From the IMG/VR virus record IMGVR_UViG_2740892235_000017, positions 1 through 16,117 of that record: 16,117 nt of DNA, one strand, 5' to 3'. Position 1 is the stretch's first letter. Each line of letters begins with the position of its first letter. Below, piece after piece: positions 1-15,009 of this stretch. Source of the DNA: a virus. Its lineage: Duplodnaviria; Heunggongvirae; Uroviricota; Caudoviricetes. Below the pieces are notes generated by a model that saw nothing but the letters and a program-made list of their open reading frames with translations, was not told the DNA's origin and did not search any database. The position numbers and the translations under genes were made by a program.

Positions 1-198
1 TCAGGACTGAAGGCGTCTGTAACAACCGAACTGATAGTCTGCCAGACCCGCCATAACAAGCTGGGTCAGTATTAGCTGGCAGCGTTCGCGTGAAAGGTAC
101 GTATTCTGTGCAATCTCCCCGACTGTCGCCGGTTCGGTGGCACTTAATTCATTAAAAACTGCTCTGGCGGTTTCTGTCATATCCTGCTGTTTCAGCAT
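1..198 (-). CDS. Hypothetical small protein (about 65 aa)
   Basis: ORF 1..234 on minus strand ends with a stop at 1..3. Preferred start is the ATG of MLKQQDM (196..198), preceded by AGGGA about 8 nt upstream. No family recognised. Confidence 0.35.
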   Translation of the reverse strand: MLKQQDMTETARAVFNELSATEPATVGEIAQNTYLSRERCQLILTQLVMAGLADYQFGCYRRLQS

Positions 199-371
199 GT
201 CTTTTTCCCTTTTCCGGTTAACGTGACACACCAATAACTCTTGTCAAAAAAGCCAGCAAGCTGAAAGACCGGTATTAATAACCACCTGCACATTTTATGT
301 ACTGCACCATTTTTCTGGCATAAAAAAACCGCTCAATGCCGGGCAGTAAAATCTTTATTACTCAGGAAATT

Positions 372-1085
372 TTAACGTACTCTGACAGTATTAATTTCAA
401 AATCATTAATATTTCCGCTATTAAATATAACGAATTTCTTACCCCCACTCCTGTATGATTTCGATAACACCAGACGATCATCATAGCGCGCAATAATGTA
501 ATACCATACATTCTCATAGTGGACCGCCTGATATTCCCTCTTAAACTGTGGTTTGTACCAACCGGCAATAAGAGAGAATGCCCAGAAATAAATCATAAAC
601 CCAGCCATCATGAACTCAATTCGGTGATGGCGAATAACAGACATTTCCGAAAAACATTTGACTGAAACAAGTCTTCTTCCAGACCTGACAAAAAGCGTGA
701 TTGCAAAGGCAGCAAGAACGCAGAAAATCAGTACATCTGGCTCAACATGCTGATGAATTACAGAAAACTCCAGAACAGGTGGAATAAAAAGCAGCAATAT
801 CGCGAGAAAAAGCCGGATAAAACTCAAATTTTGTATATTGCGCTTTTGTTTTATGCCCAAAAAGAAAACAATACCAACTCCCCATCCAATAAGGAATATA
901 ACAATAACTGTCACAGCATAAAACAAACTTCGTGCTACATCATCGACACCAGCCCCGACAACCCACCATGGAAAGCCATAGTAAAATGAAGTACCCCATC
1001 CATAGAAATAAGCGCTCCCCCATCCGAGACAGCCCATATAAGCAACAAAAAGTGAAGAGTTTCTGAGCAGAGCACTGTCATCCAT
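372..1085 (-). CDS. Multi-pass membrane protein, aromatic-rich, in a visibly AT-rich block; function unknown (cargo/moron candidate)
   Basis: 237-aa ORF with several long hydrophobic segments (e.g. VTVIVIFLIGWGVGIVFFLGI, LFLAILLLFIPPVL, MMAGFMIYFWAFSLIAGW) and a C-terminal soluble tail. Region about 360..1100 is clearly more AT-rich than the rest of the window. Lies just downstream of the Q-like gene. Confidence 0.5.
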   Translation of the reverse strand: MDDSALLRNSSLFVAYMGCLGWGSAYFYGWGTSFYYGFPWWVVGAGVDDVARSLFYAVTVIVIFLIGWGVGIVFFLGIKQKRNIQNLSFIRLFLAILLLFIPPVLEFSVIHQHVEPDVLIFCVLAAFAITLFVRSGRRLVSVKCFSEMSVIRHHRIEFMMAGFMIYFWAFSLIAGWYKPQFKREYQAVHYENVWYYIIARYDDRLVLSKSYRSGGKKFVIFNSGNINDFEINTVRVR

Positions 1086-1226
1086 AGTAACACCATTAAC
1101 AACTCAAAAATATCAACACACATTACATAACAAATTGGATTCCATGCAGTCAAGGGGCGTCATTGATGGAGAAAGTATTGGCACAATCGTCATCACGTTT
1201 AATGTCTATGCCATTTTTTGGGGGGT

Positions 1227-1250
1227 AAAAAACCCGCTCGGTCACGGGTT
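1227..1250 (-). terminator. Rho-independent terminator on minus strand (candidate tR'-like late terminator)
   Basis: Minus-strand hairpin AACCCG-tgaccgag-CGGGTT followed by a T-run (plus strand 1227..1250, A-run 1227..1230 plus stem). Sits about 90 nt downstream of the Q-like stop. Confidence 0.45.
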
Positions 1251-1292
1251 TTAGTGGCTTTGCCATCACGTATAATAACGGCAAAATATCAG

Positions 1293-1322
1293 ATTTACAC
1301 GAAATATATGCCTTTTTATCTA
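1293..1322 (-). promoter_or_regulatory. Candidate sigma70 promoter on minus strand (pR'-like late promoter?)
   Basis: On minus strand: -35 TTGCAA (plus 1317..1322), 18-nt spacer, -10 TATATT (plus 1293..1298). Located between the Q-like stop (1339) and the terminator at 1227..1250. Confidence 0.3.
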
Positions 1323-1338
1323 CTTTTGCAATACTTTG

Positions 1339-2010
1339 CTATGAAAATGCCGCCTTTTGTTTTGAACGTGTTCCCTCCACCAACAATAAAGCTTCACTAT
1401 CCAGCCGATGAAAAATGTGTTTCATTGCAACCCAGTGACCAGTAAATGTCTTGGACCAGTTTTTGGTTGTTACTCCCACCAGTAACGCCAGTTCCTGGTA
1501 TTCGTAACCTTCCCCACCAAAAAGCTCAGCTTTTACCGCCTGCGCCGCCAACCAGATCAACGTCTTCAGGCGCACCAGAGTTTTTCCTGCAATTTTTCTG
1601 GTACCGGATTGAGCATTAAATTCAGTCCACGCCCACTGCGTTATCGCGATCTGATGCTCCCAGCAAATGCTACCGCTGTAACACCACAGCAGCCAGGCTT
1701 TATGATGTTCTTCAAGAGACAGAACGGCGCGTCGCCATGATGATGTCGAAAACTCAACCGGACTGACCAGGGCAATTGATGAGCCTTTCGCCAGTGATTG
1801 TTTACCCGGGATCGGGGGATTATCCCGCGTGATCATTTTTCCGGTTACCTCATCGCGGTAACGAATTTTTTTGCGTCTGTAACGCCCTGTATCGAACAGG
1901 GCATTTTCCTGCCAGACTTCCAGCTGGCCTTTTGTCGACCCACTAAGATCCGCAGTGGCAATCATGAGTTGCTCACGAACAAACTGTAAATACTGGTTAT
2001 TCATGCACAC
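1339..2010 (-). CDS. Probable late-gene antiterminator Q-like protein (assignment by position, not by recognised motif)
   Basis: 223-aa ORF immediately downstream of rusA-like and DUF968-like genes, the position Q occupies in lambdoid and Qin-type prophages. Followed by a promoter plus terminator pair. No direct similarity to lambda Q recalled. Confidence 0.4.
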   Translation of the reverse strand: MCMNNQYLQFVREQLMIATADLSGSTKGQLEVWQENALFDTGRYRRKKIRYRDEVTGKMITRDNPPIPGKQSLAKGSSIALVSPVEFSTSSWRRAVLSLEEHHKAWLLWCYSGSICWEHQIAITQWAWTEFNAQSGTRKIAGKTLVRLKTLIWLAAQAVKAELFGGEGYEYQELALLVGVTTKNWSKTFTGHWVAMKHIFHRLDSEALLLVEGTRSKQKAAFS

Positions 2011-2359
2011 CCACCTCTGTAATTCTTATCTCCAGCCGTCCACCAGATACTGGCTTGCCACGTACAATATTGATTTCATCAAACTGCTCATCGTCCATTA
2101 ACAACCCCGCGTGCGTCAGCGCATCCAGCGGTGCTTTCAGAATATTGTCCAGGTCACGGCGGCGCTTATCCGGTGGCTCTGCAATAATTTTTATTGCCAG
2201 CCGTCCGGACAGGCTTAATTTCAGTCGCTGCTGGCGAACAATAAGCACCACTGCCCGGCGATAACGCTCCCCGGCTTTTGATACAAAATATGTGCTGCCA
2301 CGGCGTCGCCAGTAAGTGTTCACCGTCGGCGGGTAAGGTAAAACCAAATCTATGAGCAT
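1997..2359 (-). CDS. rusA: RusA-type Holliday junction resolvase
   Basis: 120-aa ORF. Matches recalled RusA features: N-terminal LPYPPTVNTYWRR, central PDKRRRDLDNILKAPLDALTHAGLLMDDEQ (compare RusA PDRRRRDLDN...DALT...DD), C-terminal GGRLEIRITE. Confidence 0.8.
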   Translation of the reverse strand: MLIDLVLPYPPTVNTYWRRRGSTYFVSKAGERYRRAVVLIVRQQRLKLSLSGRLAIKIIAEPPDKRRRDLDNILKAPLDALTHAGLLMDDEQFDEINIVRGKPVSGGRLEIRITEVGVHE

Positions 2360-2371
2360 CAGTCACCTCTT

Positions 2372-3421
2372 TTACCCGAGCACGCCAGTCGCAAAGGCGT
2401 GATCAAGAAAACGAAAAATTAACTCAATCTGAGAGCCGTACTTTTTCTCAAACTTCAGCGGGTCTGCATGAAGTTCGTTGTGGTGCTCCCGGCACAACGG
2501 TAGCGTGAAAATATCGTGGGCCTTTGTTCCCACTCCCCCCTGACCATGACCAATCAGGTGATGCGGATCGTCAGCTGGCTTACCACAACACGCACACGGC
2601 TGTGTCTTTACCCAGCGCGTGTATTTCTCATTAACCCAACGGCGACGTTTAGGCCGCCTCATGAACGATTCAGGAGACTCCGGATCAACGGCGATACTGA
2701 CAACCGTTTTTTTCTGTGGTGGATTTTGTTGCTGGTGGACGTGAAGTGGCAGCGCAATATTTTTTGTGCGCTGCTTCAGTATGCTGATGGCTGTCTGTTC
2801 TCCCGGTACGATGTCACTCTCACGGTATACGGAGCGGATTTTTTCCACTGGTAATCCCAGCGAACGACGCGCTACTGCCTCAGGTAGTGCATCCACCACC
2901 TGATTGCAGGCCGCCCACCAGGATAATTCGGCCAGCGATAACTCCCTCTCCTGCGTACCGCTTATTGCGTGACGGATGACATCAATCATCCAGGCAACCA
3001 GATTCTGCTGAGCAAGTTGATCGAGTGATTCTGATGTCTGGTCGCGCAGCTGGTTGTCACAGTGCCAGCACAACACCATCGCGCCGGTACCATAACGGTG
3101 AATGGCTGTTTCGCTGTGATGATAATCGCCGTGTGGCCACTGGCAGGATTTCACGTGACGTAATAACCAGTCAGACAGTGCACCTGCACCACCTGCTGCA
3201 CGAATAACCTGCTCATCGCTGAAAAATGGCAGTAATGTTTTATCCTCTGCCAGCGGCTGGCGAACGGCAGGAACGACTCCGGACGGCAGACCGCGCATGT
3301 TTTTCGGTTCCGGCTCCATCAATATTCTGCCGTTATGGAATGCTGACATTGATTCACGGCCCGGCTTAAGGAGCACCATCCCGAGTTCCGGTACCAGAAC
3401 AGGTCGAAGTAATACCCGCAC
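2372..3421 (-). CDS. DUF968-family nin-region protein (YdfU-like, 349 aa)
   Basis: 349-aa ORF with a Cys/His-rich C-terminal block (CACCGKPADDPHHLIGHGQGG...CREHHNELH). Length and position (between rusA/Q and a hok locus) match Qin YdfU as recalled. Confidence 0.55.
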   Translation of the reverse strand: MRVLLRPVLVPELGMVLLKPGRESMSAFHNGRILMEPEPKNMRGLPSGVVPAVRQPLAEDKTLLPFFSDEQVIRAAGGAGALSDWLLRHVKSCQWPHGDYHHSETAIHRYGTGAMVLCWHCDNQLRDQTSESLDQLAQQNLVAWMIDVIRHAISGTQERELSLAELSWWAACNQVVDALPEAVARRSLGLPVEKIRSVYRESDIVPGEQTAISILKQRTKNIALPLHVHQQQNPPQKKTVVSIAVDPESPESFMRRPKRRRWVNEKYTRWVKTQPCACCGKPADDPHHLIGHGQGGVGTKAHDIFTLPLCREHHNELHADPLKFEKKYGSQIELIFRFLDHAFATGVLG

Positions 3422-3422
3422 G

Positions 3423-3710
3423 TTACCTCCAGATGCGCTGCTGGAATGTGCGGGACGGACGCGGTGGGCGTTCGGAATAAGGGAGCCTGACGGAGATTAT
3501 CCAGTGACGACGATCGAAGCTGAGGGCTTTCTCAAACTCATATCCGCGCCTGCGGTAACACTGGATCAGCCATTCGGCCTGTTCTTCAGTGCATGGGGGA
3601 TGCTGGAACCAGTCGGTTTTAAATACGTGCGAACACCGCCCTTGCCTACTGGCAAGGGCGGCAGAATTGTGCAATCTGCTATCGTGCGCCATCGGGATCT
3701 CCGGTGGCAC
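3423..3710 (-). CDS. Hypothetical nin-region protein (95 aa)
   Basis: ORF whose stop abuts the start of the DUF968 gene; coding-like composition. No family recognised. Confidence 0.35.
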   Translation of the reverse strand: MPPEIPMAHDSRLHNSAALASRQGRCSHVFKTDWFQHPPCTEEQAEWLIQCYRRRGYEFEKALSFDRRHWIISVRLPYSERPPRPSRTFQQRIWR

Positions 3711-3745
3711 GGTGTTTCTCAGCGACGGTTCAAGTCAGCCTGATT

Positions 3746-3973
3746 TTATAGCTGCTTCTGAATATCATCAACAGGTAGTCCTGCCAACTCTCTTACCTCA
3801 GAAAGAAGAGAAAGGCTTACAACAACCTCATTACTTCGCATAACAAAACCACATTGAAAAGAACCATCACTGTTTCTGTAAACAACAACCGGGCGCGTGC
3901 TCTCATAAAACCCCGGGATCAAACTGGCTGGGATTTTCACAACACCTCCTGACGTAAAGGAAATGAAATGCAT
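3746..3973 (-). CDS. Hypothetical small protein (about 75 aa; possibly Rem-like by position)
   Basis: ORF 3746..4018 begins with GTG. Preferred start is the ATG at 3971..3973 (MHFISF...) with GAGAAG 5 nt upstream. Position between the DUF968 gene and the hok locus parallels rem in Qin. Confidence 0.35.
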   Translation of the reverse strand: MHFISFTSGGVVKIPASLIPGFYESTRPVVVYRNSDGSFQCGFVMRSNEVVVSLSLLSEVRELAGLPVDDIQKQL

Positions 3974-4152
3974 TATCGCTTCTCTCGGACTATAACCATG
4001 AAAAGAGACGCATTTCACTCAGTAAATCTGAGGATTTTATGCGCAAGAACAATGACTTTTTCTGTCTGCCGTTTATACAATCTGAATTACGTCTGTTTTT
4101 TGAACACCGATAAATCAGCAAGCATTCTCAAATAAAGATTGCCTCCATAGTC

Positions 4153-4173
4153 CACATAGTGTAACACTATGTG
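4153..4173. promoter_or_regulatory. Perfect 21-bp palindrome (candidate operator) upstream of the HigB-2-like/HTH pair
   Basis: CACATAGTGT-A-ACACTATGTG is a perfect 10-bp inverted repeat about a central A, directly followed by TATATAAAAT and the SD GAGGCAGG before the ATG at 4197. Confidence 0.5.
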
Positions 4174-4196
4174 TTATATAAAATGCAGAGGCAGGT

Positions 4197-4569
4197 ATGC
4201 GAATTTTCAAAATCGCCTGGTTTGAACGTTTCGCCCGAAAACATCGGATTTCCGATAAATCGCTGCGCAAAATCGTGGAGCAGGCCGATAAGGGGGATCA
4301 TATCCGCAAATTTGGGTAGTGGTGTCATTAAACAAAGATTAGCCCGAAGTGGTGGCGGAAAATCAGGCGGTTACCGGACAATAATTTTTTACCGCGTTGC
4401 AGAAAAAGCCTTTTTCATCTACGCATACGCAAAGAATGAACGAGAGAATATCACTGCTATAGAGGAAAATGCTTTTCGAAAAGCCGCTCCCCATGTCCTC
4501 AATCTTACTGATGAACAGCTGGCACAATTGATTCAACAAGGCCAGTTCACGGAGGTACCCAATGAGTAA
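4197..4569 (+). pseudogene. HigB-2-like (RelE/ParE superfamily) toxin, interrupted by a +1 frameshift in a G-run
   Basis: Frame A from ATG 4197 (good SD) reads MRIFKIAWFERFARKHRISDKSLRKIVEQADKGDHIRKFG then TAG at 4317..4319. Frame B continues ...GSGVIKQRLARSGGGKSGGYRTIIFYRVAEKAFFIYAYAKNERENIT to 4569. Removing one G from GGG at 4314..4316 joins them in frame. The joined product resembles Vibrio HigB-2 as recalled (GKRGGSRIIYYF...YGKNE). Confidence 0.5.
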
Positions 4570-4879
4570 AAATTACCGCAGTGATGCACTTGCATCTGTA
4601 CATGAAATGATGGAGTCACTCCATGATATCGGTGCAATCACAAAACAAACTATGCGCGAATTCGATGAAACTTGTCTTCAGCCTGCGCCGGTAATGTCTC
4701 CAGAAAGGATCCGTGCACTGCGAGAACGAGAGCATCTGTCTCAACCTGTTTTTGCCAGATACCTCAACGTCAGTAAAAACCTGATATCAGACTGGGAACG
4801 AGGAGTGAAACGCCCGGGAGGTGCAGCTCTTCGGCTTCTTTCAGTTGTCGAGAAAAACGGGATCCAGGTAATATCCTGA
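4562..4879 (+). CDS. HigA-like antitoxin / XRE-type HTH regulator (105 aa)
   Basis: ATG at 4562 preceded by GGAGGT; overlaps the toxin stop by 8 nt. C-terminal HTH-like segment LSQPVFARYLNVSKNLISDWERGVKRPGGAALRLL. Toxin-first gene order is typical of higBA. Confidence 0.6.
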   Translation: MSKNYRSDALASVHEMMESLHDIGAITKQTMREFDETCLQPAPVMSPERIRALREREHLSQPVFARYLNVSKNLISDWERGVKRPGGAALRLLSVVEKNGIQVIS

Positions 4880-4981
4880 TATTCTAATACAACAAAACCC
4901 GCCGAAGCAGGTTAAGTGCGGGTGCGTTGAGGATGCCTGACACATCAGAGGTGGCGAGGGATTTCTCCCTCGCCAGGTCTC

Positions 4982-5137
4982 TTACTCCTCAGGTTCGTAA
5001 GCTGTGAAGACAGCGACCTCCGTCTGGCCGGTTCGGATTCGTACCTCGCAGAGGTCTTTCCTCGTTACCAGTGCCGTCATTATGACGGTTAAACAGATGA
5101 CAATCAGGGCGATTAACATCGCCTTTTGCTGCTTCAT
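4982..5137 (-). CDS. hokD: Hok/Gef-family type I toxin (HokD/RelF-like, 51 aa)
   Basis: MKQQKAMLIALIVICLTVIMTALVTRKDLCEVRIRTGQTEVAVFTAYEPEE closely matches recalled E. coli HokD (RelF). SD GGAGAAG lies upstream of the ATG at 5135..5137. The ORF-track 70-aa form is an in-frame upstream extension. Confidence 0.85.
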   Translation of the reverse strand: MKQQKAMLIALIVICLTVIMTALVTRKDLCEVRIRTGQTEVAVFTAYEPEE

Positions 5138-5400
5138 AGCCTGCTTCTCCTTGCCTTTCGGCACGTAAGAGGCTAACCTACATGTGCAAAGCATGAAATT
5201 GGCCTCAGATTAATGTTAAGCGTCCTGCAAGACGCGTAATGTTAACTGGGGCTTTTCTCTGTCTGCCTTACGGCGGCATGCCCGAGGCAGACAGCCTCAA
5301 GCACCCGCAGCAATTCTACTTAACTCTTCTTTCCCCGCAAATCATTTTATCCCCGATGGTAATGTTCTCCCGATATGGGAATTCCCATATCAAGGTTAAC
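5138..5400 (-). promoter_or_regulatory. hok leader region (mok/sok-type regulation expected); candidate antisense Sok RNA on the plus strand
   Basis: About 260 nt of untranslated leader upstream of hok, containing an inverted repeat TCTGTCTGCC...GGCAGACAG (about 5257..5292). Hok loci are known to carry a structured leader and an antisense RNA; exact ends cannot be set here. Confidence 0.35.
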
Positions 5401-5408
5401 TCAATCGG

Positions 5409-5960
5409 TTAAAGCTCCATTAATTTTCCGGCCAGTTCATCTCGTGGCATTACCAGCCATCCGCGCGATTTAAGCAAAGCCAGGGCTTCTTCAACCGTCA
5501 CCAGCTGGCCTGGCGCATAACTTCGGATGAAGGCGGTTTTATCGTCACGGATCGCCAGGTGAAAATCGATATTCATTTTTCCCATAGCCCGCTCTTTCTC
5601 GTACTGGTTGAAGTAACTGTCTTCGAGTTTTTCGAATACTTCCCACGCCTGATCGGTTTCGAGCATTTTTGCATGACGGGCTGCTCCGCGTTCTGTCCAG
5701 AGGATGAGAGTGCGGGTTTTGGGAGAAATTTTCACCTCATTTTGCGACTCGTTTAAAACTAGTCGCAAATTTTTGAGCTCATCACCAACAGCTTTAAAGA
5801 AGTGTTTTCCCTCAATAAATCGAGATTTATTTTCATGGTGATTCTGCTGTATACGGATTGCTTCTGTTCCGTAAAGGCGGGCGAGTAACTCAGTTGTGAT
5901 TACAGGAATCTGGTTATAAGTGACAGGGGAAAGGTTTTTGACAGTAACTTGAGTCGTCAT
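5409..5960 (-). CDS. ORF6N-domain (antirepressor-like) phage protein
   Basis: 183-aa ORF; N-terminal region YNQIPVITTELLARLYGTEAIRIQQNHHENKSRFIEGKHFF matches the recalled ORF6N signature (...RFIEGKHYF). Confidence 0.55.
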   Translation of the reverse strand: MTTQVTVKNLSPVTYNQIPVITTELLARLYGTEAIRIQQNHHENKSRFIEGKHFFKAVGDELKNLRLVLNESQNEVKISPKTRTLILWTERGAARHAKMLETDQAWEVFEKLEDSYFNQYEKERAMGKMNIDFHLAIRDDKTAFIRSYAPGQLVTVEEALALLKSRGWLVMPRDELAGKLMEL

Positions 5961-6121
5961 GATAACGCCCTCTGGTTGATGAATTTAACTATCACCACCT
6001 TCAGGTCTCAATCATCAGGTGGCGAGACGTACAGGGTTGAGACTACCGGATCAACCAACCGGCCAGCCTTTCGGCTGCCCCATACGCCTCACCATAATTC
6101 AGATGTGCGTGCGCATACGAC

Positions 6122-6145
6122 AATAAAAAACACGCTCGCGGCGTG
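6122..6145 (-). terminator. Rho-independent terminator on minus strand
   Basis: Minus-strand hairpin CACGC-cgcga-GCGTG (plus 6131..6145) followed by TTTTTT (plus A-run 6125..6130). Confidence 0.45.
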
Positions 6146-6301
6146 TGTCTGTCGCGGTTGAATATCCGGGGTCTCAATCCCGACGGTCAACTCGACCGTG
6201 CGGTGAATATAGCCCCGGATTAGTAATTACGTCAACCCCAGCGGCAAATCGAATAAACCACCAGCGCTACCGCCATTGCAACTCCTGCCGTTACGAATGC
6301 C

Positions 6302-6565
6302 TCAGGCCAGGTCATCGTAAACTATCTCAGCGCCAATCAGTCCGTTTCGCTTCAGGCAGTCCATCGCTTTATACGGTAATTTGGCTGACAGGCGAAAATC
6401 ACCCTGCAGCATCAGGCTTATTCCCTTATCCCGGGCTTTCGCTCTGACCGCTGCCTCGCTACGACCAATCAGACTGCCGATACTTTCGACAGTCATCGTT
6501 CCCGCGCACTGCCGGAGTATCAGAATTTCAGCCCGGCACCACGTCTTCCACCCACTCACCGCTGC
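6302..6565 (-). CDS. Small GcrA-like DNA-binding-domain protein (about 87 aa)
   Basis: Segment [46 protein letters not shown] aligns with the recalled GcrA N-terminal domain (W..ERVELLKKLWAEGLSASQIAAELGGVSRNAVIGKVHRLGL). Likely GTG start at 6563..6565 overlapping the upstream TGA as GTGA. Confidence 0.4.
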
Positions 6566-7290
6566 TGTTCTCTGGTGGCGGTAATATCCCGGAGAATATC
6601 CCGGCACTTGTTCAGCTCCCGCAGCGCGGCGCAGACTCGCTCCCACTTCTGAACCTGACCTTTTGCCCGGCGCAGCTCGCGGTTAGCCACATGCAGCGAT
6701 GGTAAAATCAGCCCATCCGGATGCTTTCTGGTGAACGACGGCTGTGACTGCACTGTGACCGCCACACTTTCCGTTTTTATTTCTTCCTGTGTTTCCGCTT
6801 CCCGGACTGGTAACGCAACACATGCTGGCTGAGGAAAGGCTTTACCATCGGTTTCCGCTACGGATGCAGCTTCCGGCTCTGCCGGTAAATCAGCGCCCGG
6901 TATGCAGTAACGAAATTTACCGCCCTGATTCACGCGAATCAGACGCCCTTTGCTGATTGCCATGGCCAGCGATGAATTCGCCCGGCGGGAGGTAATCCCG
7001 AACATCAGTGCCAGCTCATCCGCCGTTTGTGGGCCATGTTGTTCAATCGCCTCAGTCAGCATTTGCGCTGTCACTTTCGGTACCGGTGACACTGGTTCAC
7101 TTTCACCTGCCTGAGTCAGCCACCACATCGACCCCTTGTTATCCGCTTCACCACGGCGCTTCAGTTTCCACAGTTCGTTGACCGCATCTTCACGGCTGAT
7201 TCCAAGGCGGGCCGCCACTACCTGTGAAGAGGCTCTTTTCAGTGCTTTCAGTGCGTCAAATACGGTTTCCATTAAAATTTCCTCCGACAA
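6556..7290 (-). CDS. Hypothetical phage early protein (244 aa) with N-terminal winged-helix-like segment
   Basis: Long ORF immediately downstream of the P-like gene with coding-like composition. Family not confidently recognised (possibly DUF1627-like). Confidence 0.45.
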
Positions 7291-7305
7291 AATCGTTTCC
7301 CAGAT

Positions 7306-7968
7306 TCAAATAAAACCAGCTGCCTTCCGGCGTTCGTATTCCTGTTTCAGCCGTTCAATTGGCGTTGGGCCTTGAGGGTGTTTCGCCCCTTCCAGTTGTC
7401 GTCGCACTGGCGGAACACTCATCCCGTTACCAACATGCTTTGCCCATTTCGTCAGTTGCCGTTCCGCAAGTCGTTTTAACTCACCCTGCGTCATCTGGCG
7501 CTCAATCCCTCTGGTACGCATTTCGAGGCAGATGTGGTACAGCACAGGCTGTGGCCACGGGTATTTATCACTCCCGTCGTATCGCCAGGATTCATTGCGC
7601 CAGCGCCGGTACTCTTCCATCACGGCATCCACCGTAAGACCAAATGGATTTGCCCCACTCTCCGAAATCAGCGCAACAAACTCAGCCAGGTCCGGGGGCC
7701 ACGTTTCACCCGCCCGGCAGCGGTCCATGCACTGACGGCAGACCAGACGGATTTGCTGTTCAGTCATCGCACCAATCTGGGCAATCCAGAGCTTCGAAGG
7801 TGCGGCCCCGTTCTTCTGAGTCCAGCGGTTCGAATACACCTCCCCCATAAGCTCCCACAGCTTCCAGGCCGTTTCCGTTGCTGATAAATCCGTTGTCACG
7901 TTCCCACTGTTCGCGTGCTGCCCGGATTTCCTGAACTGCCCGTGATGCCGTGCCACCTGATGCTGCAT
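7306..7968 (-). CDS. Replication protein P-like (helicase loader); start uncertain
   Basis: C-terminal half (GLTVDAVMEEYRRWRNESWRYDGSDKYPWPQPVLYHICLEMRTRG...ELKRLAERQ) aligns with recalled lambda P (GLPNVSELVDMVYEYCRKRGLYPDAESYPWKSNAHYWLVTNLYQNMRA...ELRRKAADE). The ORF as drawn overlaps the O-like gene by 209 nt. Confidence 0.65.
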   Translation of the reverse strand: MQHQVARHHGQFRKSGQHANSGNVTTDLSATETAWKLWELMGEVYSNRWTQKNGAAPSKLWIAQIGAMTEQQIRLVCRQCMDRCRAGETWPPDLAEFVALISESGANPFGLTVDAVMEEYRRWRNESWRYDGSDKYPWPQPVLYHICLEMRTRGIERQMTQGELKRLAERQLTKWAKHVGNGMSVPPVRRQLEGAKHPQGPTPIERLKQEYERRKAAGFI

Positions 7969-8797
7969 GGCTTCCCCCCTTGCTGACTGGTTTTACCTGT
8001 GCCCTGACGTGCTGCACGTGGCGGGCAAATTTCTGCTCCCACTGAACCTGCGTGAAAACCTTCCCCTCCGCCATCCAGTAATCCCGGAATGCGGCAAGCT
8101 CTGCAGGTGTAAATTCCGGCTCAGGCAGAGCCATACCCCACACTGCTGCCCGTTGTCGAAAATCCGGCGACGGCTGCCAGACAGTAGTCATCGAAAATTT
8201 CCCGATCGGTTCGCTCAGGCCGTCCAGGTATTCAGGTTCGGCTGTCTGCAACGGCGCACCATTCGACTCACTGGTCGGAATACTCTCGCGCGCGTTATGT
8301 GTAGGGTTTAATTCTGTATCTGTATCTTTATCTGTCGTGACTTGTCGTGACAGATGCGTGACACGTCGTGACTCATCGTGACAATCAGCATTATGTTTCC
8401 GCAGCTTTTCCCGCTCCCGCTGCGCTCTCTTGCGCTCTGCCGGGGATTTTGCCGTTTGCGAAACGTTACCATTGTCCTCTTTCAGCACCTGACGTTTTTC
8501 CCATCCGGAAATAAGGTCACCATCCAGAACCCGCCCCTGCATTGCATGCAAAATTGAATCAATTACGTCTTCCGTCACATCAAGCGCACTTGCTAAATCT
8601 TCCGTCGTGACATCAATGTGACCACGTAGTGACACGCCGTGACATGTCGTGACATTTCGTGACGCGCTCACCAGAAGGTGTATATACACTGCCATCACTG
8701 TTGCGATTGGCTGTCCTGATACCCTGGCAATCGTTCGCCACTTGGGGTCATTTGGCATGTCATGCCACAATCTGAGCCAGGCATTAGCCATACTCAC
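7760..8797 (-). CDS. Replication initiator O-like protein (N-terminal wHTH, DnaT-like C-terminal region)
   Basis: 345-aa ORF upstream of the P-like gene. N-terminal WLRLWHDMPNDPKWRTIARVSGQ is typical of phage replisome-organizer N-domains as recalled. Contains two internal arrays of direct repeats (iterons). Confidence 0.65.
   Translation of the reverse strand: MSMANAWLRLWHDMPNDPKWRTIARVSGQPIATVMAVYIHLLVSASRNVTTCHGVSLRGHIDVTTEDLASALDVTEDVIDSILHAMQGRVLDGDLISGWEKRQVLKEDNGNVSQTAKSPAERKRAQREREKLRKHNADCHDESRRVTHLSRQVTTDKDTDTELNPTHNARESIPTSESNGAPLQTAEPEYLDGLSEPIGKFSMTTVWQPSPDFRQRAAVWGMALPEPEFTPAELAAFRDYWMAEGKVFTQVQWEQKFARHVQHVRAQVKPVSKGGSHAASGGTASRAVQEIRAAREQWERDNGFISNGNGLEAVGAYGGGVFEPLDSEERGRTFEALDCPDWCDD
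8335..8382. repeat. Iteron array 1: five TCGTGAC/GCGTGAC direct repeats at 10-11 bp spacing, inside the O-like gene
   Basis: Heptamers at 8335, 8345, 8356, 8366, 8376. An AT-rich stretch lies immediately 5' (about 8296..8334). Confidence 0.6.
8605..8663. repeat. Iteron array 2: six GTGAC-containing direct repeats at 10-11 bp spacing, inside the O-like gene
   Basis: Repeats at 8605, 8617, 8629, 8637, 8647, 8657 (TCGTGAC, TGTGAC, AGTGAC, CCGTGAC, TCGTGAC, TCGTGAC). Confidence 0.6.
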
Positions 8798-8859
8798 CTC
8801 TTCTGATACCGAACTTTACCCACGAACTTCCGGAAGAAATCCGGTATAAATATTGTTGG

Positions 8860-9285
8860 TCAATGCACAACAACAGCATTACCAGGCTGACCACCACTGT
8901 TAGTCAGGGTGCCCCAGGCGATCGCTACAGCGACAAAATCATCCACATCTTTCACCAGCCGATCCCGTCGTTCGACGATCTCCCGGTAATATTCAGAACT
9001 GTGACTGCGCATACGGGCCACCAGCAAAGGCGGCATCGCCTTTTCGATCGCCGGTAACAGCGCCTGAATTTTTTCAACAGCATCAGACGTGTCCTTCTCC
9101 ACCCAGCGGAAAATTTTCTGGGTATTACGGGCCAGGGCTTCCGGATGGCTGTCGTCATACAGTTCCGGGAACGTCATCCCCAGCTCGAAATAAGTCCGGG
9201 CTATTTCAGCTGCGGGAACTTTCTCACCATCAGGATATGCCCAGGCATTCATCGCCATACGGATGTGTTCATGCTTGATTTTCAT
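8860..9285 (-). CDS. YdaT-like protein (CII-position gene of Rac-type immunity regions)
   Basis: 141-aa ORF immediately downstream of the Cro-like gene, beginning MKIKHEHI, which matches my recollection of Rac YdaT. Assignment by position and partial recall. Confidence 0.45.
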   Translation of the reverse strand: MKIKHEHIRMAMNAWAYPDGEKVPAAEIARTYFELGMTFPELYDDSHPEALARNTQKIFRWVEKDTSDAVEKIQALLPAIEKAMPPLLVARMRSHSSEYYREIVERRDRLVKDVDDFVAVAIAWGTLTNSGGQPGNAVVVH

Positions 9286-9544
9286 GAATCACCCCCGTCT
9301 CTGGTTGTGTGTTAGCCTGACACTCGACAGGTAAGCCGTCGGTTGGGTTGGGATAAGAACTGCGATCAATCTCGTGCGGAGTTACTATCCAGCCAGTTGC
9401 TTCACACCAACGTAAAATTTTTTCCCCCGTAAGTTTCGCCCGCCCGGTAATGACATGGCTTACCATCCCCTGGGTTACCCCAACAATTTCAGCAAAATGT
9501 TTCTGAGTTATACCGGAATAACGCAAATATTCTCCAAGATTCAT
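9269..9544 (-). CDS. Cro-like / YdaS-like HTH regulator (91 aa)
   Basis: N-terminal HTH-like segment (ITQKHFAEIVGVTQGMVSHVITG). Divergent from the repressor gene. SD GAGGTG upstream of the ATG at 9542..9544. Confidence 0.6.
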   Translation of the reverse strand: MNLGEYLRYSGITQKHFAEIVGVTQGMVSHVITGRAKLTGEKILRWCEATGWIVTPHEIDRSSYPNPTDGLPVECQANTQPETGVIHENQA

Positions 9545-9574
9545 TGTTCACCTCATGTGATGTCATCACGATCA

Positions 9575-9603
9575 TTAATAGCATTGTTATTTTTAAAAGT
9601 AAA
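9575..9603 (-). promoter_or_regulatory. Candidate leftward promoter for the cro-like operon (pR analogue)
   Basis: Minus strand: -35 TTTACT (plus 9598..9603), 17-nt spacer, -10 TATTAA (plus 9575..9580). Overlaps operator candidates A and B. Confidence 0.3.
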
Positions 9604-9616
9604 TAGCGCCACTATT
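9577..9616. promoter_or_regulatory. Operator pair (OR-like): two 15-bp sites of form AATAGC-N3-GCTATT, centres 25 bp apart
   Basis: Site A 9577..9591 AATAGCattGTTATT; site B 9602..9616 AATAGCgccACTATT. Each has one mismatch to a perfect inverted repeat. Located in the cro-like/repressor intergenic region. Confidence 0.55.
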
Positions 9617-9644
9617 TCAAAGAGATTAATAATCTTATTAGAAT
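9616..9644 (+). promoter_or_regulatory. Candidate rightward promoter for the repressor operon (pRM analogue)
   Basis: -35 TTCAAA (9616..9621), 17-nt spacer, -10 TAGAAT (9639..9644). Predicted start would be close to the ATG at 9652 (near-leaderless, as for lambda cI from pRM). Confidence 0.3.
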
Positions 9645-9651
9645 TGAAGGT

Positions 9652-10152
9652 ATGAAAAGAAAATCCCTGTCAGAGATCGACCTGCAAGCCGCCCAGAGAC
9701 TAAAAGAAATCTGGACGGCGAAAAAAAATCAACTAGGGTTAACCCAAGAGCGTGCGGCAGAAATTCTGGGATTTTCGACACAGGGAGCTGTAAGCCATTA
9801 TCTAAATGGTCAGACACCTTTAAATCTTGAGGCTGTTATCAAGTTCGCAGGGTTACTGCAAGTTCCTCCCGAGTCAATCAGACCAGATATGGCCGAGTTG
9901 TTACAAATTGTAAGGATGTATCCCCAAGAATCTGGGGAGGACAATGTTGTCACTATATCTGCCGATATGGAACAATCGGAAAACGAACTTCCGTTTAATA
10001 TAGACCCCATGGAGCGGGATTTGCTCCAGACGTTCAGGGCTTTCCCCAAAGAAGATAAAGAGAAAATGCTTAAGGAAATGAAGGAGAAAAAAGAATCAAT
10101 TGAAGAAATCGTTGCGCGATGGCTAGCTGCGCAAAAAAGTCGTCGCGCCTAA
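9652..10152 (+). CDS. CI-like prophage repressor (XRE-family HTH, no S24 peptidase domain); PaaR-like first gene of a three-gene repressor-antitoxin-toxin operon
   Basis: 166-aa ORF with N-terminal HTH (LGLTQERAAEILGFSTQGAVSHYLNG) and a charged helical C-terminus. Divergent from the cro-like gene. Followed 17 nt later by the antitoxin gene. Confidence 0.65.
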   Translation: MKRKSLSEIDLQAAQRLKEIWTAKKNQLGLTQERAAEILGFSTQGAVSHYLNGQTPLNLEAVIKFAGLLQVPPESIRPDMAELLQIVRMYPQESGEDNVVTISADMEQSENELPFNIDPMERDLLQTFRAFPKEDKEKMLKEMKEKKESIEEIVARWLAAQKSRRA

Positions 10153-10169
10153 TCTGAGGAGGTCAAAAC

Positions 10170-10361
10170 ATGAGTACAGCCCTTTCCCCGATAATTTCTG
10201 AATTTGAAACGGTCGAACAAGAAAACAGCTATAACGAATGGTTGCGAGCCAAAGTGGCAGCAAGCCTCGCAGATCCCCGTTCTGGAATTCCGCATGATGA
10301 AGTAATGGCTGAAATGGAAAACCTTATTGCTCAATTAGCTACAACGAACAGGAGTGAGTAA
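10170..10361 (+). CDS. Small antitoxin of a ParE-family toxin (PaaA-like, 63 aa)
   Basis: Strong SD GAGGAGG before the ATG at 10170. Its stop overlaps the toxin ATG by 1 nt. Size and context match the PaaA2 antitoxin of paaR-paaA-parE modules as recalled. Confidence 0.55.
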   Translation: MSTALSPIISEFETVEQENSYNEWLRAKVAASLADPRSGIPHDEVMAEMENLIAQLATTNRSE

Positions 10362-10651
10362 TGCTGCCCATTTTATGGCTACCTTCTGCACGTGATGATT
10401 TACGTCAGATAGTAGCCTATATTGCTAAAGAAAACCCTCCCGCTGCACGTAGACTAAAAATACGCATTGAAACATCAGTTTTGTCACTTACTGAACACCC
10501 TTATCTGTACCCACCGAGCGAAAGAGTTCCAAGTCTTCGAGAGATAGTGACTCATCCTAACTACATAATACTTTACCGAGTAACAACATCTAACATCGAG
10601 ATCGTAAATGTAGTTCACTCACGAAGGCAGTATCCAAACAAAAGCTGTTAA
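10361..10651 (+). CDS. parE: ParE/RelE-superfamily toxin (96 aa)
   Basis: ParE-like features: N-terminal LPSARDDLRQIVAYIAKENPPAARRL and C-terminal IEIVNVVHSRRQYP. Translationally coupled to the upstream antitoxin. Confidence 0.6.
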   Translation: MLPILWLPSARDDLRQIVAYIAKENPPAARRLKIRIETSVLSLTEHPYLYPPSERVPSLREIVTHPNYIILYRVTTSNIEIVNVVHSRRQYPNKSC

Positions 10652-10662
10652 TCATTTCTGTC

Positions 10663-10688
10663 AAAAACCACCTTCGGGTGGTTTTTTT
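10663..10688 (+). terminator. Rho-independent terminator after the repressor-TA operon
   Basis: AACCACC-ttcg-GGTGGTT hairpin followed by TTTTTTT (10682..10688). Confidence 0.7.
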
Positions 10689-10699
10689 CTTGCCGTGAT

Positions 10700-10739
10700 A
10701 ATAGCGTTGCTATTTACATAATTAAATAGCAGTGGTATT
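10700..10739. promoter_or_regulatory. Operator pair (OL-like): two 15-bp sites AATAGC-N3-GCTATT, centres 25 bp apart
   Basis: Site C 10700..10714 AATAGCgttGCTATT (perfect); site D 10725..10739 AATAGCagtGGTATT (one mismatch). Same motif and same 25-bp spacing as the OR-like pair. Confidence 0.55.
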
Positions 10740-10741
10740 GT
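10713..10741 (+). promoter_or_regulatory. Candidate pL-like promoter for the early-left operon
   Basis: -35 TTTACA (10713..10718), 17-nt spacer, -10 TATTGT (10736..10741). Overlapped by operator sites C and D. Confidence 0.35.
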
Positions 10742-10919
10742 TTATGCATCAACCCACCCCGTCCCACAGAATGCAGGGCAATACTTCGAGTTACCCGGCA
10801 GTGGCAAGGGGTTAAGTAGCCAGCCCGAGGCGTATGAACATGACGGCGGGAACACTTTGTATAACAGCGCAGCAGGTTTTTAGTTCCGCTACCCGGCGTT
10901 AAGGGTAAATGAGGTCAAC

Positions 10920-11072
10920 ATGGATACGCTCAATCTTGGCAACAACGAATCTCTGGTATGCGGTGTGTTCTCTAACCAGGACGGCACGTTTACCGCGATG
11001 ACGTATACCAAAAGTAAAAAGTTTAAAACCGAAGCTGGCGCGCGTCGCTGGTTAGCCAGAAACACTAACTGA
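10920..11072 (+). CDS. Small early-left protein (50 aa; YdfA-like)
   Basis: ATG at 10920 with SD GAGGT 5 nt upstream; TGA at 11070..11072. Below the ORF-track size cutoff. Occupies the position ydfA holds downstream of dicA in Qin. Confidence 0.4.
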   Translation: MDTLNLGNNESLVCGVFSNQDGTFTAMTYTKSKKFKTEAGARRWLARNTN

Positions 11073-11324
11073 TTAGTACCAGTAAAAACAGGTTGCCACT
11101 GGTTAATTTACCCTGAAAAGTCAGGGCATAACACGAAAGCGCACGGCGAAGTTCGTATATCTGTACGGCGTCGTTAAATTTTCTTCGACCGTGCACTTCC
11201 GGTTGTGGCAATCCGCGAAATGGCGCGGCGGTAAGTATGGCTGGGGTTTCCTCCATTGCTCCAGAAAATGCACCGGGTTGTCAGGTTGACCATACGCTTA
11301 AGTGACAGCCCCGCCACAATACCC

Positions 11325-11380
11325 ATGTGTAGTCTTTGGTGGCATCAGTTCTACTCCGTGACTGCTCTGCCACCCTTTTT
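11325..11380 (+). ncRNA. dicF: DicF-like small RNA with intrinsic terminator
   Basis: Segment ...GGTGGCATCAGTTCTACTCCGTGACTGCTCTGCCACCCTTTTT closely resembles recalled E. coli DicF. Terminator stem GGTGGCA/TGCCACC (11338..11344 and 11368..11374) plus T-run 11376..11380. Lies immediately upstream of dicB as in Qin. The 5' end is approximate. Confidence 0.5.
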
Positions 11381-11547
11381 AAAGTGAATTTTGTGATGCG
11401 GTGAATGCGGCTAAGCGCACGCGGAACAGTTAAAGCTAAAAACAGCGTTATGGGTGATTCTGTATTCCGGCGTTAATTGTTAACTGGTTAACGTCACCTG
11501 GAGGCACCAGGCACCACATCACAAAATTCATTGTTGAGGACGCGATA

Positions 11548-11736
11548 ATGGAAACGTCACTACCAAACGTTAATACGTCTGAAGGGTGTTTTAATATTGG
11601 TATTCTGCTCAGTAACCGGGAGTTTACTGAGGACGCCATCAGGATGAGAAAATATGAGCCTTATCTTCTCAATGATAATTCCATACTCTCCAGAATTGCC
11701 CTTCTTGAACTTGGCATTTTCGGAGGGCAGCAGTGA
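11548..11736 (+). CDS. dicB: Cell-division inhibitor DicB (62 aa)
   Basis: METSLPNVNTSEGCFNIGILLSNREFTEDAI... matches recalled DicB (M.TLLPNVNTSEGCFEIG...FTEDAI), same length. SD GAGGA upstream. Confidence 0.75.
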   Translation: METSLPNVNTSEGCFNIGILLSNREFTEDAIRMRKYEPYLLNDNSILSRIALLELGIFGGQQ

Positions 11737-11872
11737 GTTCAGCGTTTACACTGATGATGACGGTTTTTCTGATAACAGGTGAGCCACAGAAAGTGATTAC
11801 CGGAATTTATGCCAGTAAAGAATCCTGCCATCAGGCAAGAGACGAGCAAAAAATTTCCGGTGAATGTCTCCC
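11733..11872 (+). other. ydfD-like ORF copy truncated by the assembly gap (probable artefact copy)
   Basis: GTG start overlapping the dicB TGA (GTGA). Encodes MSSAFTLMMTVFLITGEPQKVITGIYASKESCHQARDEQKISGECL and then runs into the N-run at 11873. Confidence 0.4.
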
Positions 11873-11882
11873 NNNNNNNNNN
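11873..11882. other. Assembly gap (10 N)
   Basis: Run of 10 n characters. Confidence 1.
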
Positions 11883-11940
11883 ATCATTCCATACTCTCCA
11901 GAATTGCCCTTCTTGAACTTGGCATTTTCGGAGGGCAGCA

Positions 11941-12129
11941 GTGAGTTCAGCGTTTGCACTGATGATGACGGTTTTTCTTATAACAGGTGAGCCACAGAAT
12001 GTGATTACCGGAATTTATGCCAGTAAAGAATCCTGCCATCAGGCAAGAGACGAGCAAAAAATTTCCGGTGAATGTCTCCCGTTAAACAAAGTATCGCTGT
12101 ACCTGAATAACGAAATACCGGCTGGATAA
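11941..12129 (+). CDS. ydfD: YdfD-like small membrane protein (62 aa; Qin lysis protein homologue)
   Basis: MSSAFALMMTVFLITGEPQNVITGIYASKESCHQARDEQKISGECLPLNKVSLYLNNEIPAG has an N-terminal hydrophobic helix. Position directly after dicB and size match Qin YdfD as recalled. Confidence 0.55.
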   Translation: MSSAFALMMTVFLITGEPQNVITGIYASKESCHQARDEQKISGECLPLNKVSLYLNNEIPAG

Positions 12130-12224
12130 CCCGCCAGCCATATTAACGCCATACCAACGGATTAAAAATGCCAGCAATGGCAGGGATTCGTTCACCCTGA
12201 AATCTGTAATGAGGTTTAAACACA

Positions 12225-14696: not shown

Positions 14697-14760
14697 TGTT
14701 CAACCCCGGTCGTCGCCCGCAAGCTATAGTGGCGGCGACCATGATTAGCGAACAACTCTC

Positions 14761-15009
14761 ATGGCAAGACTTATTCTTCTCACTGAGTGGGCAAAAGAGG
14801 AATTCAGTGACCCGGTCCCGACTCCGGGCACGTTAAGTAAATACGCTAAAGCCGGAATGATATTTCCTCTCCCCAAAAAAGTTGGAAGACACTGGCGAGT
14901 GGATCCTCGAGCTCGCTTTGTCGGAATGGTAAACAAGCCGGAAGTGATCGCCACAGATCACCCTGCTTTGAAGAGGATACTGGAAGATGGCGCGCCCACG
15001 AAAATATAA
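14761..15009 (+). CDS. xis: Excisionase-like protein (Xis)
   Basis: 82-aa ORF directly upstream of int, overlapping it by 23 nt. Segment GMIFPLPKKVGRHWRV resembles the lambda Xis DNA-binding region (RIFPPPVKDGREY). Confidence 0.6.
   Translation: MARLILLTEWAKEEFSDPVPTPGTLSKYAKAGMIFPLPKKVGRHWRVDPRARFVGMVNKPEVIATDHPALKRILEDGAPTKI

Follow-up and report, generated by a model that had tools for sequence, protein, structure and literature searches.

A TfpB/STM1630-family membrane protein gene as probable moron cargo behind the putative late promoter of a lambdoid prophage

The late-gene junction of the prophage

This work concerns a small cargo gene of a lambdoid prophage, located on a stretch of 16,117 nt (IMG/VR record IMGVR_UViG_2740892235_000017, positions 1 to 16,117) that is called the window below and to which coordinates refer unless another record is named. 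The window is 100% identical to a prophage of the Shiga toxin-producing Escherichia coli (STEC) strain RM10466, and also to many other STEC genomes, and it extends over the integrase end of that prophage, its immunity and replication genes, and its nin-like part. The rightward early genes of the prophage correspond to the minus strand of the window, on which the cargo gene and the Q gene are read. The minus-strand order is a DUF968 gene (2372-3421), a RusA gene (1997-2359), the Q antiterminator gene (1339-2004), a promoter–terminator pair followed by an open reading frame (ORF) of 237 codons (372-1085), and an ORF for a 65-residue winged-helix protein (1-198). It is well supported that the 237-codon ORF belongs to a self-contained moron cassette of about 880 bp, which sits right after a pR'/tR'-like unit and between two tR'-like sequences. 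By its sequence, the encoded protein is a member of the TfpB/STM1630 family (Pfam PF27470).

The Q gene, whose start overlaps the end of rusA, is full-length and intact. It encodes 221 residues from the ATG annotated by RefSeq (the mechanically called ORF starts at a GTG at 2010), and its product matches Phage_antiter_Q (PF06323, E=1.3e-90) over profile positions 1-216 of 220, as well as phrog_304 ('anti-termination protein Q-like'). RefSeq names it 'bacteriophage antitermination protein Q', and its homologue is labelled 'Q82-like' in the record of phage 434.

The 237-residue protein and its family

The product of 372-1085 (WP_000342737.1, 'hypothetical protein') had been described, in a sequence-only reading that preceded this analysis, as an aromatic-rich multi-pass membrane protein, and both properties were recovered when composition and topology were computed. 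Aromatic residues account for 19.4% of the chain (24 Phe, 8 Trp, and 14 Tyr), and four strongly hydrophobic segments follow an N-terminal helix rich in Gly and aromatic residues. Five transmembrane (TM) helices are predicted at about 10-30, 52-78, 89-110, 118-133, and 158-177, with a conserved aromatic loop at 31-51. The AlphaFold2 (AF2) model built on an alignment of 61 sequences (mean predicted local distance difference test, pLDDT, 78.5; predicted template modelling score, pTM, 0.73) places helices at 10-36, 47-78, 89-111, 116-135, and 155-181 and a five-stranded beta domain at 184-235; with only 30 close sequences as input, model quality had been low (pLDDT 62.9). Lys and Arg residues occur three times in loop 79-88 and six times in loop 134-157, while loops 31-51 and 111-117 hold none. 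According to the positive-inside rule, this distribution would correspond to a five-pass protein with a cytoplasmic N-terminus, in which loop 31-51 and the C-terminal domain face the periplasm, and the AF2 model agrees with it.

Among close homologs, TM1 and loop 1 are 86-90% identical, in contrast to 29-45% for loop 3, TM4, and loop 4. No acidic, basic, or His residue is invariant across the family, which argues for a binding or scaffolding role rather than an enzymatic one. A possible lipoprotein motif (...AYMGC) was also considered and rejected, as its Cys is replaced in many homologs (AYLGG in Salmonella, for example).

Local scans of the protein against Pfam-A, NCBIfam, and PADLOC gave no match (for PADLOC, no family at E<=0.1), the local Pfam copy being one that lacks the PF27470 model, and its PHROG matches are restricted to families of unknown function, including phrog_1521. 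A large protein search, by contrast, returned 104 relatives, all 104 of them with a precomputed PF27470 ('TfpB') assignment, which is also attached to cluster representatives that have 95-97% identity with the window protein. The remote homology search that the sequence-only reading had called for led in this way to PF27470, with no match to a holin or lysis family. A profile search of 1.84 billion representative proteins found only 71 relatives. The family profile reaches Moraxella-type and Pasteurellaceae-type proteins (E values from 1e-40 to 1e-18), and a genome scan placed relatives with 22-29% identity in four Moraxella species (M. bovis, M. lacunata, M. equi, and M. oblonga), in Conchiformibius, and in many Pasteurellaceae. 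The alignments keep an AY.YGWG...YG.PWW...ARSL block, a YF...G...P segment, and C-terminal YY(I/V)L strands. The window protein also has the architecture shared by the family, that is, about 235-250 residues with a Gly/aromatic N-terminal helix and loop, several TM helices, and a small C-terminal beta domain. The name TfpB is borne in addition by an unrelated Acinetobacter ATPase.

The second name of the family comes from Salmonella. One E. coli copy is called 'STM1630 family protein' by RefSeq/NCBI, and the Salmonella homolog (protein P0069) can be identified with STM1630 because a published primer for deletion of this gene encodes NSSMLLAYLGGLGWG, which is the N-terminus of the homolog. STM1630 (238 residues, against 237 in the window) is 47% identical over 100% of the length.

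The exact window protein is found on at least 1000 contigs, always as a 'hypothetical protein', and both the protein and its arrangement are already public in the annotation of phage 434, RefSeq, and Pfam. Many truncated or frameshifted copies of the family exist in databases and genomes. A literature search on PF27470 found no paper, and one on CP0168 (the Shigella plasmid copy mentioned below) returned accession prefixes and no paper on the gene.

Candidate late promoter, leader, and terminator

Eight bases past the stop codon of Q begins a late-promoter candidate of the pR' kind (1303-1331, minus strand), in which TTGCAA (1331-1326) and TATATT (1308-1303) are separated by 17 nt and score 9/12 in a consensus scan. 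The hexamers alone are at chance level, as 2.4 kb contain six promoter-like sites against 4.6 +/- 2.4 in shuffled sequence. Nevertheless, the PPompW phages and vB_EcoS-689R5 (hereafter 689R5) share the block that extends from the Q stop codon through the terminator with about 85% identity. The block is recognisably conserved in phage 434 as well, and in 434, PPompW, and 689R5 it always lies directly after a PF06323 Q.

Transcription from this site would start near A1296. Positions of about +6 to +14 of such a transcript correspond to a -10-like element, TGaTATTTT (1283-1291, minus strand; read from the sequence), whose pattern TGnTAT.TT recurs in each of the four phages aligned. Both sigma-70-dependent pausing and the loading of Q, as they occur in lambda and in phage 82, require a -10-like element at this place in the transcript. 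By analogy, TGaTATTTT is a candidate for the sigma-70-dependent pause site that Q proteins of this type need.

The leader would be about 70 nt long and contain two hairpins. The first of them, with a 12-bp stem in the RNA fold (1258-1286, minus strand), is present in PPompW and 689R5 and is probably dispensable, because it is absent from 434. The second is an intrinsic terminator of the tR' kind (1226-1252, minus strand), about 50 nt past the -10 hexamer, with a 9-bp stem AAAACCCGU/GCGGGUUUU at 1252-1229 and a U-run to 1226. Its stem is conserved and its loop variable among 434, PPompW, and 689R5. The 86-nt leader folds with -24.1 kcal/mol (z=-3.6), and 0/200 shuffled sequences fold as well. 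A simple terminator scan missed this hairpin, in which the T-run lies partly within the stem, and an Rfam scan of positions 1-2400 at E<=1 gave no match, so that the short leader corresponds to no RNA family described to date. As phages with a Q of this family keep the block, and as it ends in a terminator fold, the view that the Q gene is followed by a Q-dependent unit of the pR'/tR' type is supported. The promoter, the strong terminator about 50 nt further on, and the pR'/tR' layout that the sequence-only reading had proposed downstream of Q have accordingly all held up.

A cassette between two tR'-like sequences

The ORF has a GC content of 39.8%, with 36.6% at third codon positions (GC3), versus 48.3% for the whole window and 48.7-53% (GC3 50-53%) for the Q, RusA, and DUF968 genes. 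Only 2.2% of all 714-nt segments of the window are as low in GC, and all of them lie at 111-771, the most AT-rich part. The impression from the letters alone that this block is more AT-rich than its surroundings is thus confirmed by calculation.

Homology to the phages that share the pR'-tR' block ends at BLAST query position 119, equivalent to window position 1227, the final base of the terminator U-run. Past this point, PPompW and 689R5 continue with tRNA genes and then with holin or terminase genes, with no insert. Because the homology stops exactly at the terminator and the tRNA or holin genes follow there, the ORF is best read as swapped-in cargo. The same gene occurs elsewhere after other Q genes. 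In other E. coli prophages, a copy with 81% identity separates holin-lysozyme-Rz genes from a Q gene that belongs to another family (DUF1133/PF06530), and one with 56% identity (55.7%) follows the Q82-like gene in phage 434 and occupies the same slot in an O157:H7 prophage. The Q-to-lysis junction of lambdoid phages is a moron site, for which stx in the Stx phages is the standard example. Here, the ORF stands between signals and genes that are adjacent in related phages (PPompW and 689R5), and its composition is distinct from that of the flanking phage genes, in agreement with the earlier suggestion of cargo at the junction of Q and the late genes.

The downstream border of the cassette is a degenerate second copy of tR', CCCGgcattGAGCGGTTTTTTTATGCC... 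(296-345, minus strand), just past the stop codon of the ORF. As a result, the cassette is bracketed by an imperfect direct repeat (310-343 versus 1215-1248; 34 nt with 74% identity, or about 50 nt with gaps), the longest that a repeat search found within 150-1400. The copy at 310-343 is closer to the tR' of phage 434 than to the window's own tR', and it aligns as well with the sequence 5' of the gene copies at loci L043 and L046. A terminator stub also heads the copy of the gene in the iro island and the one behind the other type of Q. Since tR'-like repeats bracket the cassette and stubs head other copies, these modules may have been exchanged by recombination at the conserved terminator region.

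A promoter-like element of the cassette

Between the terminator and the ORF, 39-68 nt 5' of the ATG, the cassette carries a promoter-like element (1124-1153, minus strand) composed of TTGACT, 18 nt, and (TG)t-TATGTA. Two blocks, CTTGAC(T/G) and TTTGTTATG, are conserved in it, with variable spacer and flanks, in four settings: behind a PF06323 Q (window and 434), in the prophage with a DUF1133/PF06530 Q, in the iro island, and on a plasmid with the genes of the heat-labile toxin (LT). On the LT plasmid, upstream similarity begins only about 10 nt before the first block. Because the blocks are kept while synonymous sites of the ORF have diverged (dS, the number of synonymous substitutions per site, from 0.5 to above 2), they suggest a selected regulatory element. 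Most simply this would be a promoter, TG-extended but with a poor -10 hexamer. With such an element of its own, expression of the gene need not wait for prophage induction.

Selection and genomic contexts

The ratio of non-synonymous to synonymous substitution rates (dN/dS) in pairwise comparisons among phage, plasmid, and island copies is 0.08-0.20. By region, it is 0.02-0.17 in the N-terminal third (78 codons) and 0.12-0.47 in the variable middle, where diversifying selection was considered and is not supported by these values. The ratios indicate purifying selection along the whole gene, and no region shows signs of an arms race. The divergence between copies (the dS values given above) is so large for the 434 allele that its synonymous sites are saturated.

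A blastn match is present in about 1197 of 5426 complete E. coli genomes, with at least 80% of the gene covered in 460, and a single E. coli genome may have up to four family loci; Aggregatibacter has at least three copies. The commonest E. coli variant (75% identity) lies about 870 bp from eltA, in divergent orientation, on plasmids of enterotoxigenic E. coli (ETEC) that also encode STb. This variant (P0021; 1285 index blocks; positions 4001-4714 of L040) stands directly beside eltAB, the two being divergent, and STb is encoded about 3 kb off; a literature search found no paper mentioning this neighbour. An 80%-identical variant adjoins iroB/iroC and a bor-like gene. A full-length copy with 56% identity is found on 106 Shigella plasmid records, including CP0168 of pCP301, among insertion sequence (IS) elements, and the invasion plasmids of all of S. 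flexneri, S. sonnei, S. boydii, and S. dysenteriae retain it. In Salmonella, STM1630 is located between steB and sseJ; in Citrobacter rodentium, the copy adjoins a gene for LpxR; and one Glaesserella copy adjoins a CdtA/C-like gene. The other Pasteurellaceae copies are orphans among housekeeping genes, with no constant neighbours. Because intact, selected copies occur in such varied settings without a constant neighbour, the gene can be said, on genomic evidence, to work alone, inside and outside phages.

LpxR, a lipid A deacylase, appears at several of these loci. Its gene lies just upstream of the YlcG-Q-TfpB-like block in phage 434 (1459-2625 of that locus) and in the O157 prophage (942-2116), next to a truncated lambda-type Q gene, and at 4863-5823 of the C. 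rodentium locus. The envelope genes for LpxR and TfpB-like proteins recur together.

In Moraxella, the gene is flanked by a partial pilin gene and a complete one, with the IS110-type recombinase gene piv alongside. This is the pilin inversion region to which tfpB owes its name. In M. lacunata (L011 and L012) and M. equi (L015), at about 6001-6733, the match extends over some 244 codons, while the frame from the first ATG gives 195-197 residues. These copies, which lie within the segment that inverts, thus appear to have suffered a frameshift or a truncation.

Proposed role and alternatives

We give about even chances to the overall reading of the cassette as a moron that benefits the lysogen and encodes an inner-membrane envelope factor rather than a lysis protein. 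According to this proposal, the cassette would bring with it a weak promoter of the sigma-70 type, probably silenced by H-NS, from which the protein would be made in the lysogen. After induction, RNA polymerase modified by Q would read from pR' through tR' and raise expression along with that of the late genes. The protein would bind a conserved component of the envelope at the outer face of the inner membrane, binding being the expected type of action because the protein lacks the residue pattern of a typical enzyme and none of the neighbouring genes is an obligate partner. The altered envelope or surface would then favour the carrier bacterium on animal mucosa, in colonisation or host adaptation, and would not serve phage lysis. 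For the molecular role in particular, that of an envelope factor for host adaptation, our confidence is tentative and falls somewhat short of even; the share left by the alternatives named below goes to other or unknown roles.

Support for a host-related role comes from work on STM1630. The gene is bound by H-NS, is expressed in medium that induces Salmonella pathogenicity island 2 (SPI-2) and inside macrophages, and belongs to a regulon shared with SPI-2 genes. Two -10 mutations silence it in ST313, and it is absent from S. Typhi. Signature-tagged mutants are cited in work on STM1630 as attenuated in calves and chicks. Deletion in strain 4/74 led to more replication in RAW macrophages with no growth defect in LB medium, and hypermotility was seen in one screen and was not among the phenotypes confirmed later.

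Several points weigh against the proposal. The phenotypes of STM1630 are weak or inconsistent, given that the hypermotility is unconfirmed, the macrophage effect is an increase, and growth in LB is normal. No structure or family match points to a function, and no structural relative of the family was found. TM1 is only weakly hydrophobic, and the whole topology hangs on its assignment. The -10 hexamer of the cassette element is poor (TATGTA, and TATGAG in 434), with the usual final T missing, and the consensus promoter scan did not list the element; the conserved blocks could be the site of a regulator instead. The hairpin of the downstream tR'-like copy is also poor (fold z=-0.4), so the cassette may be without a working terminator of its own. 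Finally, the link to virulence loci comes from a handful of contexts, and shared mobility alone may account for it.

An alternative that we consider unlikely is that the protein mediates superinfection exclusion or another anti-phage activity, acting in the inner membrane of the lysogen, as further exclusion proteins encoded by prophages do, so that other phages could not deliver their DNA or their infection would be aborted. This role would suit a cargo gene of a prophage that has its own candidate promoter and needs no partner gene, and likewise a multi-pass inner-membrane protein whose conserved parts are predicted to face the periplasm, and the multiple loci in E. coli and Aggregatibacter suggest paralog expansion. 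The much greater variability of the protein's middle could likewise be taken as a sign of conflict with phages, but dN/dS stays below 0.5 even there. Neither a credible PADLOC match to a defence system nor a PHROG annotated as exclusion was obtained for the protein, the neighbours outside phages are toxin, effector, or siderophore genes rather than defence genes, and the induction of STM1630 together with SPI-2 inside host cells fits phage defence poorly.

The Moraxella locus raises a different alternative, which appears doubtful, namely that the protein is a pilin or pseudopilin accessory that binds the membrane-embedded N-terminal helix of the pilin and tunes assembly, as has been proposed for TfpY/FimB-like proteins. 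The Moraxella gene lies within the invertible pilin segment and is oriented for co-transcription with only one of the two pilin variants; however, the M. lacunata and M. equi copies look truncated (195-197 residues against a match of about 244), and most contexts of the family have no pilin gene nearby. The family does occur in Moraxella, Pasteurellaceae, and Conchiformibius, which are groups that make type IV pili, and the commonest E. coli variant adjoins the genes of LT, a toxin exported by type II secretion. Similarity to TfpY-like proteins in size (235-245 residues), in N-terminal TM helices, and in a periplasmic domain containing beta strands has to be set against the five predicted TM helices instead of three, the much smaller C-terminal domain, and the lack of any NCBIfam or Pfam match to pilin accessories. 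An extension of this idea, in which TfpB/STM1630 proteins form an unrecognised class of inner-membrane partners of type IV pili and of type II secretion pseudopili, seems to us improbable. If true, it would mean that proteins borne by phages, plasmids, and islands tune piliation, toxin export, or pilus-dependent phage entry, and it would account for the presence of the family at three places: the Moraxella pilin switch, the neighbourhood of the LT genes, and the site where lambdoid phages carry toxin cargo.

It is very improbable that the protein is a lysis accessory, such as an antiholin or a regulator of the holin, which would be made exclusively at the late stage and be encoded first on the late transcript. 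The gene is indeed the first ORF past pR'/tR', it encodes a membrane protein, and in some prophages the holin is merely 0.7-0.9 kb downstream. In RM10466, nevertheless, the holin is found about 8.4 kb past the ORF, beyond methylase, tRNA, TolA-like, AraC-type, and esterase genes, and related phages with the same pR'/tR' manage without the gene. Homology to a routine holin or lysis-accessory protein, which would have overturned the sequence-only reading, was looked for: the 237-residue protein with its five predicted TM helices has no holin, antiholin, spanin, or other lysis match in Pfam or PHROG, nor a defence family match, and it has close homologs outside phages, where intact copies are under purifying selection on plasmids and chromosomal islands without lysis genes. 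The weakest alternative, a decaying or spurious ORF that is AT-rich filler between modules, could appeal to the many truncated or frameshifted copies and is scarcely credible in view of the dN/dS values across contexts and in the N-terminal 78 codons, the full-length conservation from Enterobacterales to Moraxella and Pasteurellaceae, and the number of contigs with the exact protein.

As a feature, the cassette read here as a lysogen-benefit moron is ordinary, a further example at the site that is best known for cargo in lambdoid phages. Its value lies in the picture of the family, which comprises 71 representatives, is under purifying selection, and recurs beside prominent virulence genes: LT and STb on ETEC plasmids, the Shigella invasion plasmid, steB-sseJ, the iro island, the cdt-like gene of Glaesserella, and the Moraxella pilin switch. 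STEC prophages have a member at their Stx-type cargo site, and the classical phage 434 has one too. A deletion in phage 434 or in an STEC prophage would offer an easy genetic handle on a protein that has repeatedly been flagged in Salmonella work.

Other genes of the prophage

On the 3' side of the cassette, beyond the second tR'-like sequence, the 65-residue winged-helix protein (WP_000917733.1) is encoded at 1-198 (minus strand), with its upstream region at 199-345 and a perfect TTGACA about 45 nt before its ATG. The protein matches phrog_331, a family of unknown function, while its TrmB/MarR-type Pfam matches are sub-threshold and a PADLOC match to SWIM_XIII is weak (E=4e-4). This ORF may be another small cargo module. 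Further on, the RM10466 prophage contains a DNA methyltransferase gene, genes for tRNA-Ile and tRNA-Arg, a gene with a TolA C-terminal domain, an AraC-type gene, a SASA (nanS-p-like) esterase gene, DUF1378, and DUF826, and then the holin gene. A helix-turn-helix protein of 241 residues encoded in this region was considered as a second Q and rejected, its gene being the AraC-type one. Between the AraC-type regulator and the SASA esterase, outside the window, there is a gene-free stretch of 1.8 kb (14940-16798 of L001) whose ORFs do not exceed 128 residues; stx of the Stx phages sits in a comparable part of the late region.

The early region of the window (4171-5194 and 10361-10651) contains toxin-antitoxin genes, namely hokD (4982-5137, minus strand), a RelE/ParE toxin annotated in two pieces with a helix-turn-helix partner (about 4197-4879, plus strand), and a ParE-family ORF (10361-10651, plus strand). 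An ORF of 823 codons (12225-14696, plus strand) adjoins the integrase gene (14987-16117). At the C-terminus of its product there is a 3'-5' exoribonuclease domain of the Rv2179c-like type (E=4.6e-61), and the N-terminal 640 residues have no Pfam match.

Comparison with known systems

TfpY-like proteins have 235-245 residues, three N-terminal TM helices, and a periplasmic C-terminal domain of mixed alpha/beta structure (PMC11841053). Compared by this description, TfpY, TfpX, and TfpZ (FimB-like proteins) resemble the window protein in size, N-terminal TM helices, and periplasmic C-terminal domain, and, in the genome, Moraxella tfpB is placed as their genes are, adjacent to a pilin gene; they differ by their three TM helices and larger domain from the five helices and the five-stranded domain of about 55 residues predicted here. 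The NCBIfam and Pfam scans, which involved no direct comparison with a TfpY sequence, gave no pilin-accessory match for the 237-residue protein. The TfpB proteins of M. bovis and M. lacunata, which gave PF27470 its name, belong with the window protein by profile search, length, and architecture at 22-29% identity. Unlike it, they are encoded not in a phage but next to piv, inside a phase-variable type IV pilin inversion segment, and several of their copies look truncated.

STM1630 is a full-length homolog with the same predicted helices and C-terminal beta domain, and, like the gene of the window, it is an AT-rich, horizontally acquired single gene, with its own promoter where the window gene has a candidate one. 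It differs in being chromosomal, between the SPI-2 effector genes steB and sseJ, and regulation has been measured for STM1630 only. The nearest phage counterparts, CPT_434_68 of phage 434 and WP_001302581.1 ('putative membrane protein') of O157:H7, share the order of PF06323-type Q, terminator, and gene, the 55.7% identity, and the same upstream promoter-like blocks. They are a different allele (with saturated dS), followed by a DUF3927 gene and by a holin within 0.9-2.8 kb, whereas in the window the 65-residue winged-helix gene comes next and then about 8 kb of further cargo.

The putative late unit itself resembles the pR'-6S-tR' unit of lambda and the late unit of phage 82, in which the Q gene is likewise followed by a sigma-70 promoter within 10-40 nt and then by leader elements: an early -10-like element, a short leader, and an intrinsic terminator, each with a predicted counterpart here. 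The window leader, at about 70 nt, is shorter than the 194 nt of the lambda 6S leader. As regards the cargo, the cassette is similar to stx-type morons in its insertion downstream of pR'/tR', its foreign composition, its absence from related phages, and the expectation that its expression rises with Q-dependent late transcription, and the long cargo region of the RM10466 prophage recalls the layout of the Stx phages. It is distinguished from these morons by a cargo that is an inner-membrane protein and not a secreted toxin, by a promoter-like element of its own, and by the tR'-like repeats around it.

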